64,000 nucleotides of DNA. Origin: Dictyostelium discoideum. Its lineage: Eukaryota. Location: assembly GCA_000004695.1 (NCBI GenBank), contig CM000153.2, positions 4,128,001 through 4,192,000 on the forward strand, read 5' to 3'. Below, one piece after another: positions 30,602-64,000 of this stretch. The notes below the pieces were generated by a model. It did no database searches, was not told the origin of the DNA, and saw only the letters and a program-made list of their open reading frames with translations. Positions within the stretch are counted from its first letter, which is position 1; the number at the start of each line of letters is the position of its first letter. Made by a program: the position numbers and the translations under genes.

Positions 30602-31795
<1,194 letters not shown>

Positions 31796-47430: not shown

Positions 47431-48466
47431 ATGTCACCTATAGAAAATATAAATAATAATAATTTCATTTCAAAAGATTTTAATTTTCAAATTATAAAAA
47501 ATGAATTTAGTTTTCATTATGATAAAATTATTTTAATTTATAAATTAATTAATAATCAAGAAATTTCAAATAAAGGTATAACTTTTATTTAAAAAAAAAA
47601 AAAAAAGTTTTTTATAACCCATTTTTCATAATTAATTAATTAAATTTTTTTTTTTTTTTTTTTTTTGCCCATAAAATAAAGAATATATTAAAAATATTAT
47701 AAATTATTATGAAAAGGATAATTCTTGTACAAATTCATTAATTTATAATTATATTTCAATAATATCAAATGATATTGAAAGTTGTTTTGCTAATTGGAGA
47801 AATAGTTTAAAGAATGAATTTCAAATTATTAATAAATATTGTTTAGAATTAAATGTATTAAATGAAAAATTTGAAAATTTTTGTCAATTAGAGATTAAAT
47901 TATTAAATTCTATTTCAAGACAACAACAACAACAACCACCTATTGGATTTACTAAAAATGAATATTTTATTTTAAAATCTGAAATATTTAAAATGGTAAG
48001 AATATTATTAGAAAAAAGAAATTTAAATTTTGATGAACCATTAAAAAATATTCAAATTTCATTACCAATTTTATATGAAAATTTAAAATTAATTCATTTA
48101 AATTCACATAAATTAATTAATAAAGAAAAACAACAGTTAAATGAAAATGAAAATGAAAATATATCATTACATAATCAATATATAAATTCATTATCACCTG
48201 ATAATTCATTTTTAAAAATTAAACAATTGGATGGTGCTTCGTCTTTGTCTTCTGCCATTTTTAAACCATTACCACCATTACCGCAACCAAAACAATTACC
48301 ATCAATACCAATTTCACAAATAACTTCACCACAAAAAGAACCACAACAACAATTAAAAAAATTAAGACCTGCACCAATTCCAAAAGAACTTGAAAATAAC
48401 TATGTAATTTCTGTAACTCCAACTTCATCACAGGTTACAAACAATTTTTCTAACCAAAATGTCTAA
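47431..48466 (+). CDS. P/Q-rich protein family member 3 (309 aa). join(47431..47575,47682..48466).
   Basis: Seen: exon 1 'MSPIENINNNNFISKDFNFQIIKNEFSFHYDKIILIYKLINNQEISNK' ends at a GTATAA donor (phase 1). The acceptor AG lies at 47680-81. Exon 2 is 'EYIKNIINYYEKDNSCTNSL...CQLEIKLLNSISRQQQQQPPIGF...PLPPLPQPKQLPSIPISQITSPQKEPQQQ...'. The two-exon architecture and the conserved '(K/Q)NE(F/Y)..IY(N/K)(S/L)(L/I)N...KG' exon-1 end are shared with members 1 and 2. Confidence 0.6.
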
Positions 48467-48923: not shown

Positions 48924-50160
48924 ATTTATTATTTCACATTGAATTTATTTATTAAAAATATGTTTTAATTATTATTATTATTAATATTTAGATATTTACT
49001 TAAATTCAAATAGTTTTTTAAATAATTTATCAAATTATTATCATAATAGTAATAATAATAATAATAATAATAATGGGTATGGGACGACTACTGAACAACA
49101 TCCATTAGGTGATTATAGTAATCAAATTTTAATAAATGTTAATAAAACATTCGAAGAATGGGAATTTAATCAATCTAGTCATTTTCAATCATTGAATGAT
49201 TATTGTAATCAAATTGAACAAATCAAATCAAAGATTGAAAGATTAGATAAACAAATGAACACAGAATCACAAGAATATCAAACTTTAAAAAATCAAATAT
49301 TTAAAGATGTTCAACAACTTTTCGATTCCAGAGTTAATCAATTTGATATACCATTAATTAATATACAATTCTCATTCAATAGTTGTTTACAATCTTTAAA
49401 TTCAAATCATAATGATTCTTCATTCTTACTTCAACAACCAATTAATTTTAATAATCCCGTACAATCATTACAACCATTAAATAATAATAGTGGTGTTACA
49501 CCATTAAGACATGCACCACCTGTAAATAATCATCTACAACAAATACCAAGACCAACCACTTCATATACACCACCAAAACAATATGTACCATCACCTCAAC
49601 AAAAACATCATCAATATACACCACCTCAACCATATACACCACCTCAACAACAACAACAACAACACCAATATACACCACCTCAACCATATAATCCACAACC
49701 ACAACAATATCAAGAACAAATGTATGAAAAATCACAAGAACAACCACCAGAACAACCACCAAATTCAGGACCAAGAAAAGGAAAATCACAATTGAAACAA
49801 ATTGAAAGACCCACTCAAATAGAGCTACCTGATAAATCAGTGATTGAACCAAATCTAAAGAGAAAGCCAGGTGACTTTTTAAGAGATCCTAATGCTCCAC
49901 GTTTTGTTCCTGCTTCATCTCAACAGCAGCAACAACAACAACAACAACAACAACAACATAGTAATAAACCTTCAATGGAACATCATTCAATGTCATTAAG
50001 TGAATCTTATAAACAAAAGGTTGTACTTTCAAATGATATAAATGAGCATGGATCACAAGGAAGTGATAATCATTCCAACACCACTTCTAAACCACCTGTG
50101 AGAAAATTAGATAATACAATAAGAACACCACCATCAAGACCTACTCCTTTACCAAAATAA
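48726..50160 (+). CDS. P/Q-rich protein family member 2 (439 aa). join(48726..48876,48992..50160).
   Basis: Seen: exon 1 'MIKNTAPNKFVGNNKIVDPNYETLKNEFFKLSQNILTIYNSLNNNNKTMK' ends at a GTAAAA donor (phase 1); a poly-A tract follows. The acceptor AG lies at 48990-91. Exon 2 'DIYLNSNSFLNNLSNYYH...' starts identically to member 1's exon 2 ('DIYLNSNSFMNN...'). It continues 'FDIPLINIQFSFNSCLQSLNS' (member 1: 'FDIPLINTQFSLPSLYQCLNS') and then a Pro/Gln-rich tail with 'YTPPQPY' repeats. Confidence 0.7.
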
Positions 50161-50299: not shown

Positions 50300-50617
50300 T
50301 TTGCATTTATTATTTAAAAATTAAAAAAAAAAAAAATATATAATAAAATTTAAAAATATTAATTTTCGACCTCGTTATTGATTAATGGGCACTCTCGAAA
50401 ATTTAACCAATAAAATAATATCTCCCTTTTCATTGGACGCTTCTAAATTTTTTTTTTTTTTTTCATGGCTATTTGGTGTCATTTGCAGAATATTTTTTTT
50501 TTTTTTTTTTTTTTTATAATAAAATTTTTTTTTTTTTTTTTTTTTTTTTATTCGTGATCTATTTTTTTTATATTAAGAATAATATTTTATTTCTTTTTTT
50601 TTTTTTTTTTAATATAT

Positions 50618-51111
50618 ATGTTTTTCATTAAAAATAGAGTAGTTATTTTGATTTTCTTTTTATTTATTTGTTTCAAATTGAATCAAAGCCTAATTCAATC
50701 AGAATGTAGATATTTTAAAAATATTTTTATTTTTTTAAATTTTTTTTTTTTTGGGATTTGTTTTTAACCACTTTTTTTTTTTTTTCATTTTTTCATTTTT
50801 TTCACGGTCAAACAAAGATGAATGTTCATTTAATTTATTAAGTAAAATATTAAATGTTTCGCTTGAATACAGTAGGGATTCAAAAAATAGATATGATTTT
50901 TGTGGTTCAAGTAAAAAAGGTTTTGTATCGATGGTATGTGATGGGGAAAATGATTTCATTTCATCTATATCATTAGGTAGTAATAGAAGTACAATATTAT
51001 CATCTTCCGATTTTAATTGTTTTTCTTCGATTAGTATTATGTTTGTATTTAAATTTTTTAATTGTCATTATTATTATCATTCTTATTATTATTTTTTTAC
51101 AAATTATTAAT

Positions 51112-51148
<37 letters not shown>

Positions 51149-51580
51149 CAATTATATCTTAATTATAAATTTGAAAAAAATTTTTTATATGGATTTTCAA
51201 AAATAATTCCACACTTTTTATCATATTCTACAGATGAATCATTATTTGATTTGGATTTTAATATTGATAAAATGATATTAATAGATAGATTAGTTATTAA
51301 AAAATTAAAAATAAAAAAAAATTATAATCTTTATTTTTCAAGTTTAAAAAATGTCAGTATTTTCGAACTTGAATATGGACCATCAAATTTTCAAATTAAT
51401 TATATAAATGATTTATTTGAATTTAAAAATTTCATATCAATAAATATTTTTTCAAGTAGTATACCTTCAATGAATAATATAAATATTCTAGAATTGTAAG
51501 TAAAAATAATTTTATTTTTTTTTTATTTTTCAAATTAATAATAATAATAATAGTAATAAAAATTATTAATTAATGATAAA

Positions 51581-51656
<76 letters not shown>

Positions 51657-53976
51657 GTAGAGTTTTAAATTTATTACCAAGTTTTAATTTAAAATCATTT
51701 TCCAACTTTTCAACATTTTCAAATGTTGAGTCTATAAATTTAAATCCTACAAATCCATCAATGATTTTCCCATTCCCAATAGGATTGTGTAATCTTAATT
51801 TTAATAATAGTTTGGGAAGTTTGTAAGTTTTCTTTCTTTTTTTTTTTTTTTTTTTTTAATTTTTTTATTCTAATAATTTTGATAAAATCCACATTCTAAT
51901 ATAAATTATAAAGAGAAATAAACTACCAAATAGATAAACCATTAGATTTTATAGACCTTTCAGCATTGGGAAATTTATTTTTATTGTAAGTTTTTTTACT
52001 AATATTCATTATCATTACATTTTCTTTAATTTATTAATTAATTTATTATTATTTTTTTTTTTTAAAAAATAAAGTTTAATGCCAAATGTGGGACCTTTAT
52101 TTAATGTGGATGGTGAATTTCCTTTTATTAATATGATTAATAGATTTTATATAAGATTGTAAGTGTTTTTTTATATTGGTGAAAAACATTTACATTTAGA
52201 TTTTAATTATTTTAAATTTAATTAATTTTTTTTTTTTTTTTTTTTTAAATTAGTGAATTTTCAAATGGAAGAATTAATAGTTTTAATTTTATAAATGCAA
52301 CAACATTGACAATGGAAAATAATGGTATGGCAGGTACGATACCAACAGCTTTTCCTGGTGATAGGAACATTAATCTAAAGGGTAATAAGTTGGTAGGAGA
52401 AATTGATGAAAGTTGGTGTGGTAATTTATTTGATATTAGTGATAACTATATAAGTGGTGAGCTTCCATCATGTTTTAAATGTCATTATTTACAACCATTA
52501 ATTAGTTCAACACTATCTGGTAATAGATTTAAAAATTTCGATCCAAATAATTTAGAACCATGTTTAGATTTAGAATTAAATTTAGAATATAATCATTCTT
52601 TCAACAGATCATTAACATTATATGGTAAAAATCTTGGTCCATTTGATAATTCATTAAGAATTTATGATATAGATAATATTGGACCTATTACTATTATAGC
52701 ATGCAAAGAATATAAGATTAGAAAGTTTACTTGGGTACCGGGAGATGCACCAAAAGCAATTAATTTAACTTTTCCTTTTTTACCACAAGGCCCAAGAACA
52801 TTTGAAATCTCTGCATATAATGAATTTTTACCACATATCGATAGTATAATTAGATATTCAGATTATTTTATTATTAGTGGTAAATACTTTGCATATAATA
52901 AGAGTGTTATTAATGTTTTAATTTCAAATCATTCATGTTCAATTATAACAAGTAATTTCAATGAAATTCAATGTTATCTTTCAAATTCAAATCAAATAAT
53001 AAATAGTAATAGCAATAAATTAATTGCAAGTATTATTCAAGTTATGAATGTTTCAAGTACATTTAATTTCACAGCGAATCAAGCATGTAATGGTAATAAT
53101 TGTCCAATCGCAGATTGTAATAAATATGGTGAATATAATTATGAAAGTGGTGTTTGTGATTGTTATTCAAATGAATGGAGAGGCTATTCATGTGAATTAA
53201 AATCATTAAATTGTTTAAGTAATGATTGTAGCGGTAATGGCTATTGTAATAGTATCATTGGTAAATGTCAATGTAATAAAAATAGAGCATTCGATGATTG
53301 TAGTGGTATATTATGCAATGATGGTAATGGTTGTTTTAATGGAGGTAATTGTAATTTTCAAATTGGGGTTTGCAATTGTTCATCCAAATGGATTGAAAGT
53401 TCAGGATGTGCAACACCCAAACAATCAATTGATTCACAACAATTAGTACAAACAAAAAACAATCAAATATTAACATTAATTGGTTGGTTTGGTAATATTA
53501 ATATATTTTTAACAGTATTAATCGATGGTAAAATTTGTGACATCACTTCAAATAATAATGAAACCATTCAATGTATTCCACCAAATTATCATTGTGATTT
53601 CATAAAGACCTCATCATTAGAATTATCAGTTTCTCAAAATAATTACATATGGAATGGAGTTTATAATCCAATATTTATTAATGGCTGTAGTAATAGCAAT
53701 GAAGGCAGTAGTGGTATCAATAACAGTTATAGTAATAGCAATGAAAAAGAAAATTCATCATTATCATACAAAAATCAATCTTTAGTTTTAATCCTATCAA
53801 TTGTGTTATCTTTAATTTTATTAGGTTTATTAGGTTTAGTTTTCTTTAAAAAATTAGTCATAAAAAATAATTATTTAAATATAAATAATATTGAAAATAA
53901 AATAAGACCGAGTGAATATGATAATGATCAACCAGATGAATTTTTAAAAAATAAAATTAAATTAATTGACCTTTAG
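50618..53976 (+). CDS. LRR + EGF-like + single-TM surface protein, tandem family unit 1 (899 aa, 7 exons). join(50618..50705,50818..51040,51148..51495,51661..51822,51914..51985,52075..52158,52254..53976).
   Basis: Seen: a signal peptide 'MFFIKNRVVILIFFLFICFKLNQSLIQSE'. All seven phases are consistent (1,2,2,2,2,2). Exon 7 carries plant-type LRR motifs ('MENNGMAGTIPTAF..LKGNKLVGEIDESW..ISDNYISGELPSCF'). It then has four Cys-rich EGF/tenascin-like repeats ('CNGNNCPIADCNKYGEYNYESGVCDCYSNEWRGYSCE','CLSNDCSGNGYCNSIIGKCQCN','CNDGNGCFNGGNCNFQIGVCNC'). A TM helix 'LVLILSIVLSLILLGLLGLVFF' and a short cytoplasmic tail '...QPDEFLKNKIKLIDL*' follow. Confidence 0.75.
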
Positions 53977-54504
53977 AGGCAATACCCCAAATTAAAAAAA
54001 AAAAAAAAAAAAACAGGTTCCCTTAGAGATACTCCAATTAGTTGGGTGGGTTGTTTTATTTCTCAAATTTAATTGTTTTTTTTTTTTTTTTTTTTAGTTG
54101 CTTCATTTTTACAAATAAATAATAAAAAATTTTATTCAAAAAAAAAAAAAAATTAATTAGTCAACCCTTAAAAAATATATGAATTCAAGGTGAATCTAAC
54201 ATATTTTAATATTTATATGGTCGCAAAATAAAAAAAAGGCAGAGGGATTTCACTGAAAGTTTTGGTGCATTTTTTAAAAAAAATAAAAAATAAAAAAAAA
54301 AAAAATTTAAAAAAAAATCTTAAAAGCGATAAAACTTTTCTTAGGATGAAAATTTTTTTATTTTTTTATTTTTTTTTTTTTTTTATTTTTTTTTTTTTCG
54401 AATTTAAAAATATCTCAAATGATTTAACAAGTGCGGGCAAAACAAAATTGATTTTTTTTTTTTTTTGTTTTTTTTTTTTTTTTTTTTTTAAAAAATCAAA
54501 AGGG

Positions 54505-55560
54505 ATGAAAATGAAAAGTAGAGGGTTCATATTATTTTTTATAATCATACTTTCAAATTTAAGCCAAGCAACTCTAGTTGAATCAGAATGTAAAAATAAT
54601 AGAATTTTAATAACACAAATAAATAAATAAATATTAATTCTTTTATTTTTATTTCTTATATTAGATAAATGTTTATATAATTTATTAAGTAAAATTTTAA
54701 AAGTATCAAAAAACTTTTATAAAGAATCTAATAATAGATATGCATTTTGTCAGACTGCTGATAAATCAGATTTTCTTTGGGCACAATGTTCTGAAGGTTC
54801 AGTTGAAAATATTTTTTTAGGTTCCAATAATAAAAGTACAATTTTTTCAAACAATGATTTTAATTGTTTTTCTTCTTTGCAAAATATGTAAGTCCTAACA
54901 ATAACAATAATAATAAATATCATTTTATTAATACTTTTTTTTTTTAAAAATAAAAAATAAAAAAAAGAGAAATATTTTTTAAATACAAATTTGAAAGAAA
55001 TTTTTTATTTGGGTTTTCAAGTAATTTATTTAATTTTAAATCACATTCTTCAGATGAATCATTAATTGATATGGATGTCAATGCTAACAAAACAATTTCA
55101 ATTAAATATTTATATATTAATCAATTAATAATTAAAAGAGATTTTAATATTTATTTTTCAAATTTTGTTAATGTCCGAAATTTTGAAATTGACACACTCC
55201 AATCAAACTACCAAATTAATTATATAAATGATTTGGTTAGTTTTAAATGTAATTTTGATACAATTTCATTTTCTTCAAATAATATACCATCAATGAATAA
55301 TATACTAGTAAATAATTTGTAAGTTTTTATTATTCTATTCTTTTTTTTTTTTTTTTTTTTAATATGAAATAATACTAAATTAATTAATCTATATTTATAT
55401 AATAGATATATAAAACTACTTTCAAATTTTAATATTGATTCATTTTTCAACTTTTCAACAAATACAAACATTGGTACTATAAAATTAAATTCATCAGATC
55501 CATCAATGCTTTTTCCATTTCCACCCCCTTCTTCTGTTCAATCATTGTAATTATTAATTA

Positions 55561-55648
<88 letters not shown>

Positions 55649-57732
55649 AACTATTATATTATTATAAATAAGAGTAATAAATTATCTAATAGAGAAGCCA
55701 TTGAATTTTATTGATTTATCTAAATTTGAAAAATTAATTTATTTGTAAGTATTTTTTTATATTTTAAAATGTTTCTTTTCTAAACTTTTCACTAACTTTT
55801 TTTTATAATTTATAATTATTAAAAGAAAAATTCCAAATGTTGGAGTTTTATTTAATGTAGATGGTGAATTACCATTCATTAATATGCAAAATATTTATAA
55901 TTTGTAAGTATTTTTTTTTTTTTTTTTTTTTTTTTTCAGAATTTAATGATGATGATATTTAACTATTTTACATATTTTTAATTAGCGAGTTTTCAAATGG
56001 GAAAATCAATTATTTAAATTGGACAAAATTACCAACCGAAGTGGGATATTTAACAATGGAAAATAATGGTATGACAGGTACGATACCAACAAAGTATCCA
56101 GATTATTTATCCTACCTTTATGTAAAGGGGAATAAGTTGACAGGAGAAATTGATGAAAGTTGGTATGGTAAATTATTTGATATTAGTGATAACTATATTA
56201 GTGGTGAGCTTCCATCATGTTTTAAATGTCATTATTTACAACCATCAATTAGCTCAACACTATCTGGTAATAGATTTAAAAATTTCGATCCAAATAATTT
56301 AGAACCATGTTTAGATCTAGAATTAAATTTAGAATATAATCATTCTTTCAACAGATCATTAACATTATATGGTAAAAATCTTGGTCTATTTTTTAATTCA
56401 TTTAGTATTAGCAGTGTTAATAATGCTTTACAACCTTTGCCTATTGATATATGCAAAGAATATAAGATTAGAATGCGACCTACAGAACCAGGTGATGCAC
56501 CAAAAGCAATTAATTTAACTTTTCCTTTTTTACCACAGGGTTCAAAAACATTTCAAATCTCTGCATATAATGAATTTTTACCACAAATCGATAGTATAGT
56601 TAGATATTCAGATTATTTTATTATCAGTGGTAAATACTTTGCATACAATCAGAGTGTAACTACTGTTTTAATTTCAAATCATTCATGTTCAATTATAACA
56701 AGTAATTTCAATGAAATTCAATGTTATCTTTCAAATTCAAATCAAATCATTAATAATGAAGAATTAATTACAAGTATTATTCAAGTTATGAATGTTTCAA
56801 GTAAATTTAATTTCAGAGTGAATCAAGCATGTAATGGTAATAATTGTCCAATTGCAGATTGTAATAAATATGGTGAATATAATTATGAAAGTGGTGTTTG
56901 TGATTGTTATTCAAATGAATGGAGAGGCTATTCATGTCAATTAAAATCATTAAATTGTTTAAGTAATGATTGTAGCGGTAATGGTTATTGTAATAATATC
57001 ATTGGTAAATGTGAATGTAATACAAATAGAGTATTCGATGATTGTAGTGGTATATTATGTAATAATGGTCATGGTTGTTTTAATGGAGGTAATTGTAATT
57101 TTCAAAATGGAGTTTGCAATTGTTCATCCAAATGGATTGAAAGTTCAGGATGTGCAACACCCAAACAATCAATTGATTCACAACAATTAGTACAAACAAA
57201 AAACGATCAAATATTAACATTAATTGGTTGGTTTGGTAATATTAATATATTTTTAACAGTATTAATCGATGGTAAAATTTGTGATATCATTTCAAATAAT
57301 AATGAAACCATTCAATGTATTCCACCAAATTATCATTGTGATTCCATAAAGACCTCATCATTAGAATTATCAGTTTCTCAAAATAATTACATATGGAATG
57401 GAACTTATAATCCAATATTTATTAATGGCTGTAGTAATAGTAATGAAGGCAGTAGTGGTATCAATAACAGTTATAGTAGTAATAGTAATGAAAACAATCA
57501 AAAAGAAAATTCATCATTATCACCCAAAAATCAAATTCTAGTAATAATCATATCAATTATATTATCTTTAATTTTATTAGGTTTATTAGGTTTAATTTCC
57601 TTTAAAAAATTAATCAAAAAAAATAATTATTTGCATTTAAATAATATTGAAAATAAAATAAGGCCGAATAAAGATGATAGTGGTCAACCAGATGAATTTT
57701 CAAAGAATAAAATTAAACTAATTAACCTTTAG
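54505..57732 (+). CDS. LRR + EGF-like + TM surface protein, family unit 2 (898 aa). join(54505..54589,54665..54887,54968..55318,55406..55546,55673..55744,55826..55903,55986..57732).
   Basis: Seen: 'MKMKSRGFILFFIIILSNLSQATLVESE' ends at a GTAAAA donor. Exon 2 is 'YKCLYNLLSKILKVSKNFYKESNNRYAFCQ...FNCFSSLQN' with a GTAAGT donor. Exon 3 '...SDESLIDMDVNANKTISIKYLYINQLIIKRDFNIYFSNFVNVRNFEID...SMNNILVNN' ends at 'tt|GTAAGT'. Exons 4-6 are short (141, 72 and 78 nt), all phase 2. Exon 7 is 'FSNGKINYLNWTKLPTEVGYLTMENNGMTGTIPTKYP...', then EGF repeats, a TM 'LVIIISIILSLILLGLLGLISF' and '...QPDEFSKNKIKLINL*'. Exon sizes and phases match unit 1. Introns 4-5 contain long (ATT)n runs (55561-55650). Confidence 0.75.
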
Positions 57733-58250
57733 AGGTAAAATCCCAAAAAAACAGAAAAAAAAAAAATAAAAAAAATAAAAAAAATAAAAAAAAAAAAAAA
57801 AAAATTTGAAATTATCTATATCTGTGGGTCTTGATAATATCCATTATTTTATTCACAATAATCATTTTTTTTTTTTTTTTTTAATTTTGGGTTTTTTTTT
57901 AATTTATTTTTAGATTTTTTTTTTTTTTTTTTGGCTTTTTTTTTTTAATGGGCTCAAAAAAAAAAAAAAAAATTAAAATAAAATAAAATAAAACCCAAAA
58001 ATAAACTTTTTTAAATAAACAAATAAATAGGACACATAATCAAACTCCAAAATTTTTATTTTTAATTTTTTTTTGTTTAAGCATATTTTATTATTAGGAG
58101 CCGCATAAAAATAAAAAAAATAAAAGTAAAAAAAAAAGAGGCGACAAACCCACCAGCGCCCATAAAATTACTTTTCACCACTTTAATGTGAAGTGAACAA
58201 AAAAAAAAAATTGTTTTGTTTTTTTTTTTTTTAAACTCAAAATCTTTGTG

Positions 58251-59300
58251 ATGAAAAGAAGAGGGTTTATTCTATTTTTCTTTTTATTCATATTTTTTGA
58301 ATTAAACCAAACAACTATTGTTGGATCAGAATGTAACTATATTAAATTTATTTATTTATTATTAAAATTCTAATTATTATTTTTTTTTTTATTAGATAAA
58401 TGTTTATATAATTTATTAAGTAAAATATTAAACGTATCAAAAAACTTTTATAAAGAATCTAAAAATAGATATGCACTTTGTCAGACTGTTGATAAATCCG
58501 ATTTTATTTGGGCATATTGTAATGAAGAAGGTTTAGTTAATGATATTGTGTTGCGTGGTGATAATAAAAGTACAATATTTTCAAACAATGATTTTAATTG
58601 TTTTTCTTCTTTGCGAAGTATGTAAGTAATAAAAAATAAAATTAATTATAGTTTATTATAATTTATTATTATTATAATTTTAATACTTAATTATATCATT
58701 TTATTTATATTTTTCAAATAAAGAGACATATTTTTTAATTATAAATTTAAAAGAAATTTTTTACTTGGATTTTCAAATAATATAGTTAATTTCAAATCAC
58801 GTTCTTCAGACGAATCATTAATTGATATGGATGTCAATATTAACAAAACAATAGCAATTCAAATTTTAAATATTAATCAATTAATAATTAAAAGAGATTT
58901 TAATGTTTATTTTTCAAAATTTGTTAATGTCCGAAATTTTGAAATTTACACACTACGATCAAAACATCAAATTAATTATATAAATGATTTGGTTAATTTA
59001 GGATGTAATTTTGATATAGTTTCGTTTTCTTCGAATAATATACCATCAATGAAAAATATACAATCAAATACATTGTAAGTTTTTATTTTATTTTATTTTA
59101 TATTAAATAATATTAAATTAATAACCTAAATTTATTAAATAGAAATATAAATTTAAATTCAAATTTTAATATTGATTCATTTTCCAACTTTTCAACATAC
59201 ACAAAAATAGGTGCTATAGAATTAACTCCATCAAATCCATCAATGATTTTCCCATTCCCACCCCCATCTTGTGTTAATGTTTTGTATTTATTATTTATTA

Positions 59301-59361
<61 letters not shown>

Positions 59362-61097
59362 CATTATTATTATTATCATTATTATTATCATTGTTTTTTA
59401 TTATTTATTATTGACTATTGATTTATTTTTAACTATTGTTATTATATAAAGAAAAATAAATTATCAAATAGATAAACCATTGGATTTTATTGATTTATCT
59501 AAATTTGAAAATCTGTATGATTTGTGGGTATTTTTTATTTTTAAATAATTTTTGTTTTCTAAACTTTTCACTAATTTTATTTTTATAATTTTTAATTATT
59601 AAAAGAAAAATACCAAATGTTGGAGTTTTATTTAATGTAGATGGTGAATTACCATTCATTAATATGCATGTTATGGATACTAGTATTTTGTAAGTTTTTT
59701 TTTATTATTTATATTCTTGTTTTCATTGTAATTATGGTACGATACCAACAAAGTTTCCAGATAAATTATCAATTCTTTATTTAAATGGTAATAAGTTGAT
59801 AGGAGAATTCAATGGAAATTGGTATGGTGAAGATTTTGATATTAGCGATAACTATATTGATATTTATCTTCCATCATGTTTTAAATGTCACTATTTACAA
59901 CCATCAATTAGCAGACCAATATCTGGTAATAGATTTAAAAATTTCGACCCAAATAACTTAGAACCATGTTTAAGCATAGATTTAAATCTTTCATATAATA
60001 ACTCCACTGATCAATTACTATTGTATGGTAGTGATCTTGGATTTCCAACATCAATCATGATATTAGATAACCCAATTTTAGTATTTGATTATGGTGAAAA
60101 ATGTAAGGAAATTAGAATTTTAAAGCCTAGATGGAAGATAGGAGAAGTACCAAAAGCAATTAATGTTACATTTCCTTTTTTACCACAAGGTCCAAGAACA
60201 TTTGAAATCTCTGCATATAATGAATTTTTACCACAAATCGATAGTATAGTTAGATATTCAGATTATTTTATTATCAGTGGTAAATACTTTGCATACAATC
60301 AGAGTGTAACTACTGTTTTAATTTCAAATCATTCATGTTCAATTATAACAAGTAATTTCAATGAAATTCAATGTTATCTTTCAAATTCAAATCAAATCAT
60401 TAATAATGAAGAATTAATTACAAGTATTATTCAAGTTATGAATGTTTCAAGTAAATTTAATTTCAGAGTGAATCAAGCATGTAATGGTAATAATTGTCCA
60501 ATTGCAGATTGTAATAAATATGGTGAATATAATTATGAAAGTGGTGTTTGTGATTGTTATTCAAATGAATGGAGAGGCTATTCATGTCAATTAAAATCAT
60601 TAAATTGTTTAAGTAATGATTGTAGCGGTAATGGTTATTGTAATAGTATTATTGGTAAATGTCAATGTAATACAAATAAAATATTCGATGATTGTAGTGG
60701 TATATTATGTAATAATGGTAATGGTTGTTATAATGGTGGTAATTGTAATTTTCAAAATGGAATTTGTAATTGTTCATCCGAATGGATCGAAAGTTCAGGA
60801 TGTGCAACACCCAAACAATCAATTGATTCACAACAATTAGAACAAACAAAAAATGATCAAATACTAACATTAATTGGTTGGTTTGGTAATATTAATATAT
60901 TTTTAACAATACTAATCGATGGTAAAATTTGTGATATCACTTCAAATAATAATGAAACCATTCAATGTATTCCACCAAATTATCCGTGTGATTTCATAAA
61001 AAACTCATCATTAAAATTATCAGTTTCTCAAAATAATTACATATGGGATGGGATTTATAATCCAATATTTATCAATGGTTGTAGTAGTAGTGAAGAC

Positions 61098-61191
<94 letters not shown>

Positions 61192-61457
61192 ATAGTAATA
61201 GTAGTAGTAATAGTGGTAGTAATGAAAACAAAAAAGAAAAAGAAAATTCATCATCTAAAAAATTAATTATAATAAGTTTATCAATTTTATTTTCTTTAAT
61301 TTTATTAGGTTTATTAGGTTTTGGTTTCTATAAAAAAACAATTAAAAATAATTATTTAAATTTAAATTATATAAAAATTAAAATAAACTCGAATGAATAT
61401 GATGATGACCAACGAGATAATTTTTCAAAAAATAATATAAATTTAGTTAACCTTTAA
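58251..61457 (+). pseudogene. LRR + EGF-like + TM family unit 3, pseudogene. Exon-like blocks: 58251..58332, 58396..58621, 58724..59074, 59143..59284, 59452..59523, 59606..59689, then a remnant ORF 59796..61457.
   Basis: Seen: exons 1-3 are intact and in phase ('MKRRGFILFFLFIFFELNQTTIVGSE', '...MDVNINKTIAIQILNINQLIIKRDFNVYFSKFVNVRNFEIYTLRSKHQ...'). Exon 4 has a 1-nt insertion, 'ggtgctatagaAattaactcc', where unit 4 has 'ggtactatagaattaactcc'. This creates a frameshift and an in-frame TAA at 59276-78. Relative to unit 4, ~110 nt are deleted at the exon 7 acceptor and start ('ttttcattgtaatta[...]tggtacgataccaacaaag'). No in-phase acceptor remains, and every candidate AG gives an immediate stop. 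The remnant exon 7 ORF also carries an (AGT)~35 poly-Ser expansion (61090-61200) that the other units lack. Confidence 0.65.
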
Positions 61458-61883
61458 AGTAAAAAAAAAATAAAAAATAAAAATAAAAAAAGAATAAAAT
61501 TCTTTTTTTTGTGGGTTTGAATCTATATCTGCCTTATATCTATGGGTCTTTGATAATATCTCTTTTTTTTTTTTTTTTTAATTATCTAACTAAATGCATA
61601 GACAACCTTCAAAACACAACCACTTAAATGTGGTTTTTGTTTTTTTTCGAAATTGTGGAGATATTTTTTTTTACGAAAAAAAAAAAGAAAAAAAGAAAAA
61701 AAAAAAAAAAAATTTTTTAATATGACAATCACTCCTAAGGTTTCCATTAAAAAAGGACTTTTTTTTTTTTTTTGTTTCCAATCACATATAGTTTATTATA
61801 AACAGTGTTTTATTTTTATCTTTTATCTTCCCAACGCAAAACAATTTTTTTTTTTTTTTTTTTAAAAACTCAAAATCTTTATA

Positions 61884-62717
61884 ATGAAAAGAAGAGGTTT
61901 TATACTGTTTTTCTTTTTATTCATATTTTTAAAGTTAAACCAAACAACTATGGTTGAATCAGAATGTAATATTTTAAATTTATTTATTTATTATTTTATT
62001 ATTAAAATTCTAATTATTATTTTTTTTTTTTTTTTATTAGATAAATGTTTATATAATTTATTAAGTAAAATATTAAACGTATCAAAAAACTTTTATAAAG
62101 AATCTAAAAATAGATATGCACTTTGTCAGACTGAAGATAAATTCAATTCTAAATGGGCAGAGTGTTCTAATGGTTTGGTTGGATTTATTTATTTGGGTGG
62201 TAATAATAAAAGTACAATATTTTCAAACAATGATTTTAATTGTTTTTCTTCTTTGCATTTTATGTAAGTAATAATAATAATAATAAAAATAAAAATAATT
62301 ATAAAAATAATTTTAATACTTAATAAATATCATTTTATTAATATTTTTCAAAAAGAGAAATATTTTTTAATTATAAATTTGAAAGAAATTTTTTATTTGG
62401 ACTCCCAAATAATTTAGTTAGTTTAAAATCACATTCTTCAGATGGATCATTAATTGATATGGATGTCAATGCTAACAAAACAATATCATTTAATTTTTTA
62501 TATATTTATCAATTAACAATTAAAAGAGATTTTAATATTTATTTTTCAAATTTTGTTAATATTGTAGATTTTGAAATTGAAACCCTCGAATCAAACTATC
62601 AAATTAATTATATAAATGATTTGGTAAAGTTTAAAATTTTTAATCATGTTTCATTTTCTTCAAATAATATACCATCAATGAATTATATACAAACATATAT
62701 GTTGTAAGTTTTTAATA

Positions 62718-62749
<32 letters not shown>

Positions 62750-62938
62750 TTAAATAATACTAAATTAATAATCTAAATTTTATTAAATAGAAATATAAAT
62801 TTAAATTCAAATTTTAATATGGAATCATTTTCCAACTTTTCAACATACACAAAAATAGGTACTATAGAATTAACTCCATCAGATCCATCAATGATTTTCC
62901 CATTTCCATTCCTTCCTTCTATTCAATCATTGTATTTA

Positions 62939-63030
<92 letters not shown>

Positions 63031-64000
63031 GACTTTTGATTTATTTTATTATTATAATTATTATAATATAAAGAACAATAAATTATCAAATAGATAAACC
63101 ATCGGATTTTATTGATTTATCTAAATTTGAAATTTTAACGACTTTGTAGGTATTTATTATATTTAAAATGTTACTTTTCTAAACTTTTCTCTAACTTTTT
63201 TTAATAATTATTAATATAATTTAAAAGAAAATTGACAAATGTTGGAGTTTTATTTAATATAGATGGTGAATTACCATTCATTAATACGCAGAATATTTAT
63301 AATTTGTAAGTTTTTTTTATTTATTTATATTTTAGTTTTCATTGTAATTAAAGTATTAATTTTATCTACATCCTTTTTTCAATTAGAGAGTTTTCAAATG
63401 GGAAAATCAATTATTTAAATTATACAAATTTACCACCCAATTTACGTTATTTAACAATGGAAAATGATGGTATGACAGGTACGATACCAACAAAGTATCC
63501 AGATAATTTTTTAACCCTTTTTTTAATGGGTAATAAGTTGACAGGAGAACTCGATGAAAGTTGGTTTGATAAAATCTATGATTTTGATATTAGCGATAAC
63601 TATATTGATATTTATCTTCCATCATGTTTTAAATGTCATTATTTACAACCATCAATTAGCAGACCAATATCTGGCAATAGATTTAAAAATTTCGACCCAA
63701 ATAATTTAGAACCATGTTTAAGCATAGAATTAAATCTTTCATATAATAATTCCACTGATGAATTACTATTGTATGGTAGTGATCTTGGAGATTCAATGTC
63801 AATGAAGATATTAGATAACCCAATTTTAGTAATTGTTTATGGTGAACTATGTAAAGAATATAGAATTTTTAAACTTGCATGGAAGATAGGAGAAGTACCA
63901 AAAGCAATTAATTTAACATTTCCTTTTTTACCACAAGGTCAAAGAACGTTTGAAATCTCTGCATATAATGAATTTTTACCACAAATCGATAGTATAATTA
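61884..64000 (+). CDS. LRR + EGF-like + TM family unit 4, 3'-partial (runs off the window). join(61884..61965,62041..62263,62356..62703,62791..62931,63074..63145,63228..63305,63387..>64000).
   Basis: Seen: 'MKRRGFILFFFLFIFLKLNQTTMVESE' ends at a GTAATA donor. Exon 2 is 223 nt, like units 1 and 2. Exon 3 is '...MDVNANKTISFNFLYIYQLTIKRDFNIYFSNFVNIVDFEIETLESNYQINYINDLVKFKIFNHVSF...'. Exon 4 is 'LNINLNSNFNMESFSNFSTYTKIGTIELTPSDPSMIFPFPFLPSIQS' (141 nt); it ends at a non-consensus GTATTT donor, followed by a (TTA)n-rich intron. Exons 5 and 6 are 72 and 78 nt. Exon 7 is 'LEFSNGKINYLNYTNLPPNLRYLTMENDGMTGTIPTKYP...', still open at 64000. Confidence 0.7.

Follow-up and report, generated by a model that had tools for sequence, protein, structure and literature searches.

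A tandem array of predicted ComC-like leucine-rich repeat surface-protein genes on Dictyostelium discoideum chromosome 4, with signs of domain-restricted gene conversion

The closest described relatives of the genes considered here are the ComC-like "EGF-like domain-containing proteins" (e.g. DDB_G0268314 and DDB_G0277431; EGF, epidermal growth factor), a dictyostelid-restricted family, often arranged in tandem, whose members consist of a signal peptide, an N-cap, leucine-rich repeats (LRRs) of the LRR_ComC type, beta-sandwich/TIG domains, tenascin/teneurin-like EGF repeats, a TIG domain, and a single transmembrane (TM) helix, and which carry a ComC_SSD domain. comC has been described as encoding a developmentally essential secreted/transmembrane EGF protein found in group 4 only (PMC4931340), the comC mutant as showing "aberrant aggregation" (PMC2873529), and, in a citation of Kibler et al. 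2003 given in PMC8865844, ComC is presented as needed for intercellular communication and aggregation in development. Two further systems invite comparison. The Tgr ("Tiger") proteins TgrB1 and TgrC1, which are involved in developmental cell-cell interaction (PMC3188802), are clustered dictyostelid type I surface paralogs with IPT/TIG domains, and the LRR receptor kinases and receptor-like proteins (RLPs) of plants, such as RGFR1 and the Cf-9-type RLP clusters, occur in tandem with sequence exchange between paralogs. The locus described here is a tandem gene array on chromosome 4 of D. discoideum AX4, of which four units (U1–U4) lie in the window, the 64,000-nt stretch of DNA analysed (contig CM000153.2, positions 4,128,001 to 4,192,000), and the fifth (U5) lies beyond it. 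The array, which evolves by duplication, exchange, and conversion, quite probably encodes type I membrane glycoproteins that form a subfamily of the ComC-like group and whose LRR heads would make them surface binding proteins.

A BLASTN comparison of the 48–64-kb region with the whole window placed U1 at ∼50589–54013, U2 at ∼54468–57772, U3 at ∼58204–61499, and U4 from ∼61838 to beyond the window end at 64000, all co-linear on the same (forward) strand and pairwise 75–91% identical, with every E-value 0. Four head-to-tail paralogous units had been described in an earlier reading of the DNA made without database searches (the sequence-only reading), and this comparison bears that description out. 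U5 (DDB_G0286217), the full model of which is 882 amino acids long, follows the completed U4, and the family stops after it, giving an array of five units over a total length of ∼17 kb. Upstream of 50.5 kb in the window, TBLASTN returned chance-level matches only and no family member. The possibility that the units are parts of a single giant gene was rejected, every unit starting with a separate signal peptide and ending in a stop codon that follows a TM helix and tail; an A/T-rich spacer is also present for each unit, and the units are separate genes. The G+C content of 15–28% falls in the range expected for the D. discoideum genome.

Spliced gene models were built from GT/AG sites conserved in the four-unit alignment. 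U1 (DDB_G0286209, 50618..53976, 899 amino acids) comprises exons at 50618–50705, 50818–51040, 51148–51495, 51661–51822, 51914–51985, 52075–52158, and 52254–53976 (88/223/348/162/72/84/1723 nt). U2 (DDB_G0286329, 54511..57732, 896 amino acids) has exons at 54511–54589, 54665–54887, 54968–55318, 55406–55546, 55673–55744, 55826–55903, and 55986–57732 (79/223/351/141/72/78/1747 nt, the first becoming 85 nt if an in-frame upstream ATG is used). U4 (DDB_G0286211, 61884..64000), which is cut by the window end, has exons at 61884–61965, 62041–62263, 62356–62703, 62791–62931, 63074–63145, 63228–63305, and from 63387 past 64000 (82/223/348/141/72/78/>614 nt). The introns are GT-AG throughout, 75–165 nt long, and 84–97% A+T, compared with 76–77% for the exons, and their phases are 1,2,2,2,2,2, in agreement with the sequence-only reading, which had put all introns after exon 2 in phase 2. 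In exons 3–7 the opening residue is the first hydrophobic one of an LRR beta-strand (IQLYLNY, LVLNLL, LEINYQ, FLMPNV, and FEFSNG), and the 72-nt exon corresponds to exactly one 24-residue LRR. The translations of U1 and U2 are residue for residue those of KAM9942139.1 (899 amino acids) and KAM9942138.1 (896 amino acids), and the 519-residue translation of U4 is an exact prefix of KAM9942136.1 (909 amino acids), all three entries coming from a recent GenBank annotation of an independent assembly of a near-identical strain. The common seven-exon architecture claimed at first thus holds for three of the four window units, with U1, U2, and U4 matched in GenBank, but fails for U3, which has suffered a deletion. 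Full open reading frames (ORFs) with all six introns spliceable are kept in U1, U2, U4, and U5.

All array genes are already annotated in AX4, as a cluster look-up returned DDB_G0286209, DDB_G0286329, DDB_G0286211, and DDB_G0286217, and exon 7 of U2, a 1.7-kb ORF, is 100% identical to DDB_G0286329 of AX4. Three of the older AX4 models look wrong: that of DDB_G0286209 (754 amino acids) is N-terminally truncated and equals a suffix of the 899-residue U1 model, that of DDB_G0286329 (850 amino acids) skips part of exons 2 and 3, an LRR segment, and that of DDB_G0286211 (896 amino acids) retains intron 6. The last of these, beyond the window, loses part of the TM helix to splicing as well.

The products are predicted to be type I membrane proteins, laid out as signal peptide, Cys-containing N-cap, ∼12 LRRs, beta-sandwich, TIG domain (TIG1), three EGF repeats, a further TIG domain (TIG2), Ser/Asn stalk, TM helix, and tail. 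A hydrophobic signal peptide, 16–17 N-glycosylation sequons, a 23-residue TM helix, and a 42-residue tail (KKLIKKNNYLHLNNIENKIRP..QPDEFSKNKIKLINL in U2) with a conserved NNYLxL motif can be read directly from the sequences; a Pfam search of the tail found no kinase or other domain. LRR_ComC (PF24141) was matched in U1, U2, U4, and U5 with 55.5–74.7 bits against a cut-off of 27 (E∼1e-18 to 1e-20), the match covering nearly the whole 288-position model (residues 94–390 in U1), whereas EGF_TEN, with 36–38 bits (E∼1e-9), stayed under its 65-bit cut-off. TIG exceeded the Pfam cut-off in U1, U2, and U5. Three six-cysteine EGF repeats could be counted after the beta-sandwich, where three or four had been proposed; their Cys residues are invariant in a 20-sequence alignment, and invariant Cys, Gly, and Pro columns reach across distant paralogs. 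The assignment of the genes to LRR, EGF, and TM surface proteins is therefore upheld by the Pfam matches (LRR_ComC, TIG, and EGF_TEN-like); the TM helix and tail are present, the peptide motifs quoted in its favour occur in U1 and U2, and the two TIG/beta-sandwich domains had been missed. In an AlphaFold2 model of the U1 ortholog (mean predicted local distance difference test score (pLDDT) 68.7), the LRR solenoid is confident at residues ∼60–420 (pLDDT 80–93), with beta-sandwiches at ∼430–510 and ∼710–800 and the TM helix at 841–864.

Residues 24 to ∼790 of U2 align co-linearly, over ∼770 residues, with DDB_G0268314 (25% identity, E 5e-35). The latter contains the full ComC set, namely LRR_ComC (332 bits), both beta-sandwiches, EGF repeats, TIG, and ComC_SSD, whereas the array proteins have only three EGF repeats, no Pfam match to Beta-sand_ComC_1st (PF24142), and a borderline match to Beta-sand_ComC_2nd (PF24143; 19.6–27.1 bits against a cut-off of 27, reached in the U3 ORF only). 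This part of the proteins nevertheless lies within the co-linear alignment with DDB_G0268314 and takes a beta-sandwich fold in the AlphaFold2 model. ComC_SSD (PF22933) had no match at E<=0.01 in U1, U2, U4, and U5, compared with 245–340 bits in the controls P0024, P0060, and P0084, and a low-complexity Ser/Asn-rich linker stands before the TM helix in its place, on which grounds the array proteins are read as a short-stalk subfamily of the ComC-like family. This subfamily was found only in D. citrinum and the D. discoideum complex, with more distant relatives in D. dimigraforme, within a superfamily that is large in group-4 dictyostelids. Protein searches and cluster look-ups returned many ComC-type paralogs, none of them labelled comC, so that it is the Pfam models that tie the array to ComC. 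The sequence-only reading had been unable to name a family; the genes are annotated but uncharacterised members of a known one, the Pfam ComC-like LRR family. A second related group (DDB_G0286437, DDB_G0286431, and DDB_G0286417) lies on chromosome 4 outside the window, at a distance of ∼110 gene numbers in the annotation of ACTFIT; its proteins are 45–49% identical to those of the array, and some of them have ComC_SSD.

Plant LRR receptors share the LRR consensus NxLTGxIP with the array proteins and gave the best structural match. Foldseek against the PDB returned first the peptide-hormone receptor RGFR1 (5hz1, E 3e-4), followed by the IPT domains of plexin and Met and by TLR8, and profile searches gave weak matches to plant LRR receptor kinases (E 1e-17, ∼10% coverage), such that the description of the repeats as plant receptor kinase-style was a fair one. 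These matches bear on the idea that the genes encode environmental or microbial pattern receptors, in which LRR ectodomains would sense bacterial prey, pathogens, or secreted peptides and the array would diversify like plant RLP clusters or animal Toll-like receptors (TLRs). RGFR1 and TLR8/TLR1-2 are indeed the nearest solved folds, dN/dS (nonsynonymous over synonymous divergence) is elevated in the LRRs, and the organisation of the array, with conserved parts converted and LRRs diverging, is typical of plant R/RLP clusters. LRR solenoids are, however, alike whatever their function, and the TM-scores of the Foldseek matches were low (0.19–0.25); no TIR, kinase, or other signalling domain is present, and the closest characterised relative, ComC, is developmental rather than immune. 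Pattern recognition is accordingly considered unlikely. The array proteins lack a kinase domain, the plant proteins lack the TIG and EGF stalk, and the similarity extends over only a few repeats. The likeness most likely concerns no more than the generic LRR fold, whether reached by convergence or inherited from a common ancestor.

Protein identity between paralogs is 46–85% in the N-terminal and LRR parts, compared with 85–96% in TIG1-EGF-TIG2. This gradient cannot be attributed to constraint alone, because synonymous divergence (dS), estimated by the Nei-Gojobori method for each gene segment, shifts along the gene and does so incongruently between pairs. For U1–U2, dS is 0.64 in exons 1–6, 0.14 in the middle domain, 0.146 in TIG1-EGF, 0.017 in TIG2, and 0.144 in the tail, whereas the corresponding values for U2–U3 are 0.21, 0.49, 0.11, 0.138, and 0.40. 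Given this incongruence, U2 is a mosaic, with a 5′ half closest to U3/U4 and a middle and tail closest to U1. A longest-common-substring search found a perfectly identical tract of 441 nt, located in the region of TIG1 and the first EGF repeat, at 56555..56995 in U2 and 60205..60645 in U3 (both on the forward strand). Exon 7 is 86% identical overall between these two units, and none of 2000 permutations gave a run longer than 85 nt (p<=0.0005 for 441 nt); the tract is read as a recent gene-conversion tract. Further identical tracts of 387 and 261 nt are shared by U2 and U4 and by U4 and U5, respectively.

Neighbor-joining trees with 200 bootstraps were constructed for a set of 22 proteins drawn from AX4, D. 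citrinum, and four further assemblies labelled "discoideum" or "cf. discoideum". The tree of exons 1–6 recovered the three orthogroups tested, U1, U2, and U3, each in 200/200 bootstraps. The same orthogroups had 0–1/200 bootstraps in the tree of TIG1-EGF-TIG2, in which paralogs of the same genome grouped together instead (D. citrinum, 200/200; strain FIZ, 191/200). Because the LRR exons group by ortholog and the TIG-EGF-TIG segment by genome, these trees show concerted evolution confined to the stalk, with the LRR head diverging by orthology. Gene conversion in exon 7, which the sequence-only reading had suspected from near identity between units, is thereby well supported from three sides: dS, identical tracts, and tree incongruence.

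Evolutionary rates were obtained for one strain pair, AX4 and ACTFIW (FIW). Orthologs of U1–U3 are 89–91% identical in amino acid sequence, with dS of 0.084–0.098, nonsynonymous divergence (dN) of 0.040–0.054, and dN/dS of 0.42–0.64, compared with 97–98% identity, dS of 0.043–0.055, dN of 0.010–0.014, and dN/dS of 0.17–0.32 for three flanking ORFs, such that dN of the array proteins is ∼4 times that of their neighbours. No segment of the U1–U3 ortholog pairs had dN/dS above 0.83. As dN/dS is 0.42–0.64 and the ACTFIW copies contain no stop codons, selection acts on the intact genes, which are not decaying, and the family is best described, from these substitution rates, as fast-evolving under net purifying selection. 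Between paralogs, dN/dS in the LRRs is 0.6–1.05. The fourth units of AX4 and ACTFIW (L001, 18522–21977) may not be orthologous, because they are only 77.5% identical in protein sequence with dN/dS of ∼1.0. ACTFIW also has at least one family member more than AX4 (ACTFIW_013005), and from this and the divergence of the fourth units it follows that the copy content of the array turns over between lineages. The dS of the flanking single-copy ORFs (44.7–50.2 kb), ∼0.045–0.055, is large for a single species, although ACTFIW is labelled D. discoideum, and it appears that a number of the recent assemblies named "D. discoideum" or "cf. discoideum" belong to separate lineages.

The same comparison is the natural place to weigh an allorecognition or kin-discrimination locus, in which the variation among LRR heads would underlie strain-specific recognition, a task that tgrB1/tgrC1 perform with Ig-like/IPT domains. 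The array is a tandem set of surface-protein genes with variation concentrated in the putative binding domain, dN exceeds that of the flanking ORFs, the fourth units diverge at dN/dS of ∼1.0, and copy content varies between strains; ComC is also said to act, like lagC/tgrC1, in adhesion and communication during development. Yet dN/dS is below 1 for all three clear ortholog pairs, U1 LRRs are nearly identical in strains FIR and FIW, no ligand-receptor gene pair is evident, and the LRR exons form stable orthogroups across D. discoideum lineages, with the U1 group reaching D. citrinum (200/200), which is the opposite of hyper-polymorphic alleles. Tgr recognition involves extreme allelic polymorphism of a ligand-receptor pair, whereas the variable LRR head of the array is stably orthologous between lineages; Tgr ectodomains, moreover, are built of multiple IPT/Ig-like domains without LRRs, whereas that of the array is dominated by LRRs and EGF repeats with at most two TIG-like domains. 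Kin or self recognition, for which the sequence-only reading had named the array a candidate, has no direct support and remains speculation, and an allorecognition locus of the Tgr kind is regarded as very unlikely.

U3 (58251..61457, forward strand) is a damaged copy. Its first six exons, at 58251–58332, 58396–58621, 58724–59074, 59143–59283, 59452–59523, and 59606–59689 (82/226/351/141/72/84 nt), are followed by an exon-7 remnant at 59736–61457. Alignment with U4 and with the ACTFIW ortholog (locus L001) revealed that ∼136 nt are missing at 59735/59736. Intron 6 has thereby lost its 3′ part, including the AG acceptor, and exon 7 its first ∼28 codons, equivalent to one LRR. Read-through of the intron-6 donor gives TTG TAA at once. 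Splicing from the canonical intron-6 donor to exon 7 at the usual junction or close to it was rejected; the only in-frame acceptor available to it lies ∼110 nt into the remnant (59846) and would cost further codons. The frame is restored by cryptic GT-AG pairs only, e.g. 59669|GTTATG to CAACAAAG|59754, and a newer annotation calls an 878-residue product. An identical deletion junction was found in an independent assembly (L002), which matches the window at 99.53% identity across 19.3 kb, with 7 mismatches and 13 gaps, and the deletion is therefore not an assembly error. Since the acceptor and an LRR have been lost in the AX4 lineage, whereas orthologs in other strains are intact (928–934 amino acids), U3 is probably a pseudogene or an LRR-deleted allele in that lineage. 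At 61081–61221, an (AGT)47 microsatellite in U3 gives the juxtamembrane stalk a stretch of ∼45 consecutive Ser residues; U1 and U2 have short Ser/Asn stretches only at this position, and stalk length thus varies between paralogs.

The state of U3, disabled in two AX4-lineage assemblies, could be taken as a sign that the array is a decaying cluster of redundant duplicates, whose apparent conservation comes only from recent duplication and conversion. Such a history would also fit dN/dS of ∼1 for the LRR exons of U3 versus U4 and a similar value for the AX4/FIW fourth units, as well as the short models (675–747 amino acids) of several homologues in other strains. It is hard to reconcile with the full ORFs and six spliceable introns of U1, U2, U4, and U5, the stop-free FIW orthologs of U1–U3 with their constrained dN/dS, the persistence of the orthogroups to D. 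citrinum, and the columns of Cys, Gly, and Pro invariant across distant paralogs, and general decay is regarded as very unlikely.

The preferred account is thus of ComC-like membrane glycoproteins with LRR heads, encoded by an array that evolves by gene conversion as well as by duplication and unequal exchange. In each genome, conversion keeps the TIG-EGF-TIG stalks of the paralogs alike, whereas the N-terminal LRR exons escape it and so remain paralog-specific, orthologously inherited, and faster-evolving, with U3 disabled, or at least made one LRR shorter, in the AX4 lineage. The proteins would be located at the plasma membrane, their LRR solenoid facing outward as the likely ligand- or partner-binding part and seat of specificity, and, because the tail is non-catalytic, they may act as adhesion molecules or co-receptors that signal via partners. 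A role in developmental cell-cell communication, by analogy with ComC, is speculative, as are roles in allorecognition or microbial sensing in its stead. Several points weigh against this account. The splice sites are predictions based on conservation, on the continuity of the ORFs, and on their match to an automated annotation; the TIG1-EGF segment is poorly defined in the AlphaFold2 model of the U1 ortholog (pLDDT 35–60); the missing ComC_SSD and undetected Beta-sand_ComC_1st make the functional analogy with ComC weak; relaxed constraint, and not diversifying binding, could lie behind the high dN/dS of the LRRs; and a literature search for the array gene identifiers or Pfam names found no paper.

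A bolder form of the preferred account, to which only a small chance is given, would see the array as a modular recognition locus, in which five stable, fast-evolving LRR heads supply distinct specificities for self, partner, or microbe on an interchangeable stalk maintained by conversion, and U3 loss and copy turnover tune the repertoires of lineages. What is new here is the set of corrected gene models, the damaged third copy, and the case of domain-restricted gene conversion. Three old AX4 models are corrected and one damaged copy flagged. The outcome is a clean annotation and, for a cluster of protist surface-protein genes, a textbook case of concerted evolution limited to certain domains. 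If the LRR heads prove to be determinants of specificity, Dictyostelium would have a second, LRR-based family of surface recognition proteins beside the IPT-based Tgr family, and one that is genetically tractable because of the small size of the array.

The remaining features of the locus concern introns, spacers, and flanks. An (ATT)n microsatellite, found by Tandem Repeats Finder and unit alignment, fills intron 4 of U2 (55550..55665, forward strand) and makes up most of intron 4 in U3 (59288–59445) and U4 (62936–63064) but not in U1, with tracts of ∼115–160 nt that cross-match an unrelated (ATT)n tract at 30934–31090. Intron 3 of U1 contains a perfect T67 homopolymer (51587–51653). Searches of the spacers with ARAGORN and Rfam found no functional RNA or tRNA. 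A 3′-flank block, tctatatctgtgggtcttgataatatc (57815..57841, forward strand), was found by pattern search and spacer alignment to be common to the flanks of U2 and U3 (61522–61555 in the latter), and the same searches gave no counterpart in the U1–U2 spacer or upstream of U1. The conserved intergenic blocks of the sequence-only reading do exist, but downstream of U2 and U3 only; as candidate regulatory elements they were rejected, being merely a duplicated 3′ flank common to these two units. The U2–U3 spacer also contains an A/T-run inverted repeat at 57870–58005, with T-rich 23-mer repeats facing an A-rich stretch, which is probably low complexity only. Directly upstream of the array lie Gln/Pro/Asn-rich low-complexity ORFs unrelated to the family (47993–48466 and 49192–50160), which are 97–98% conserved in strain ACTFIW.

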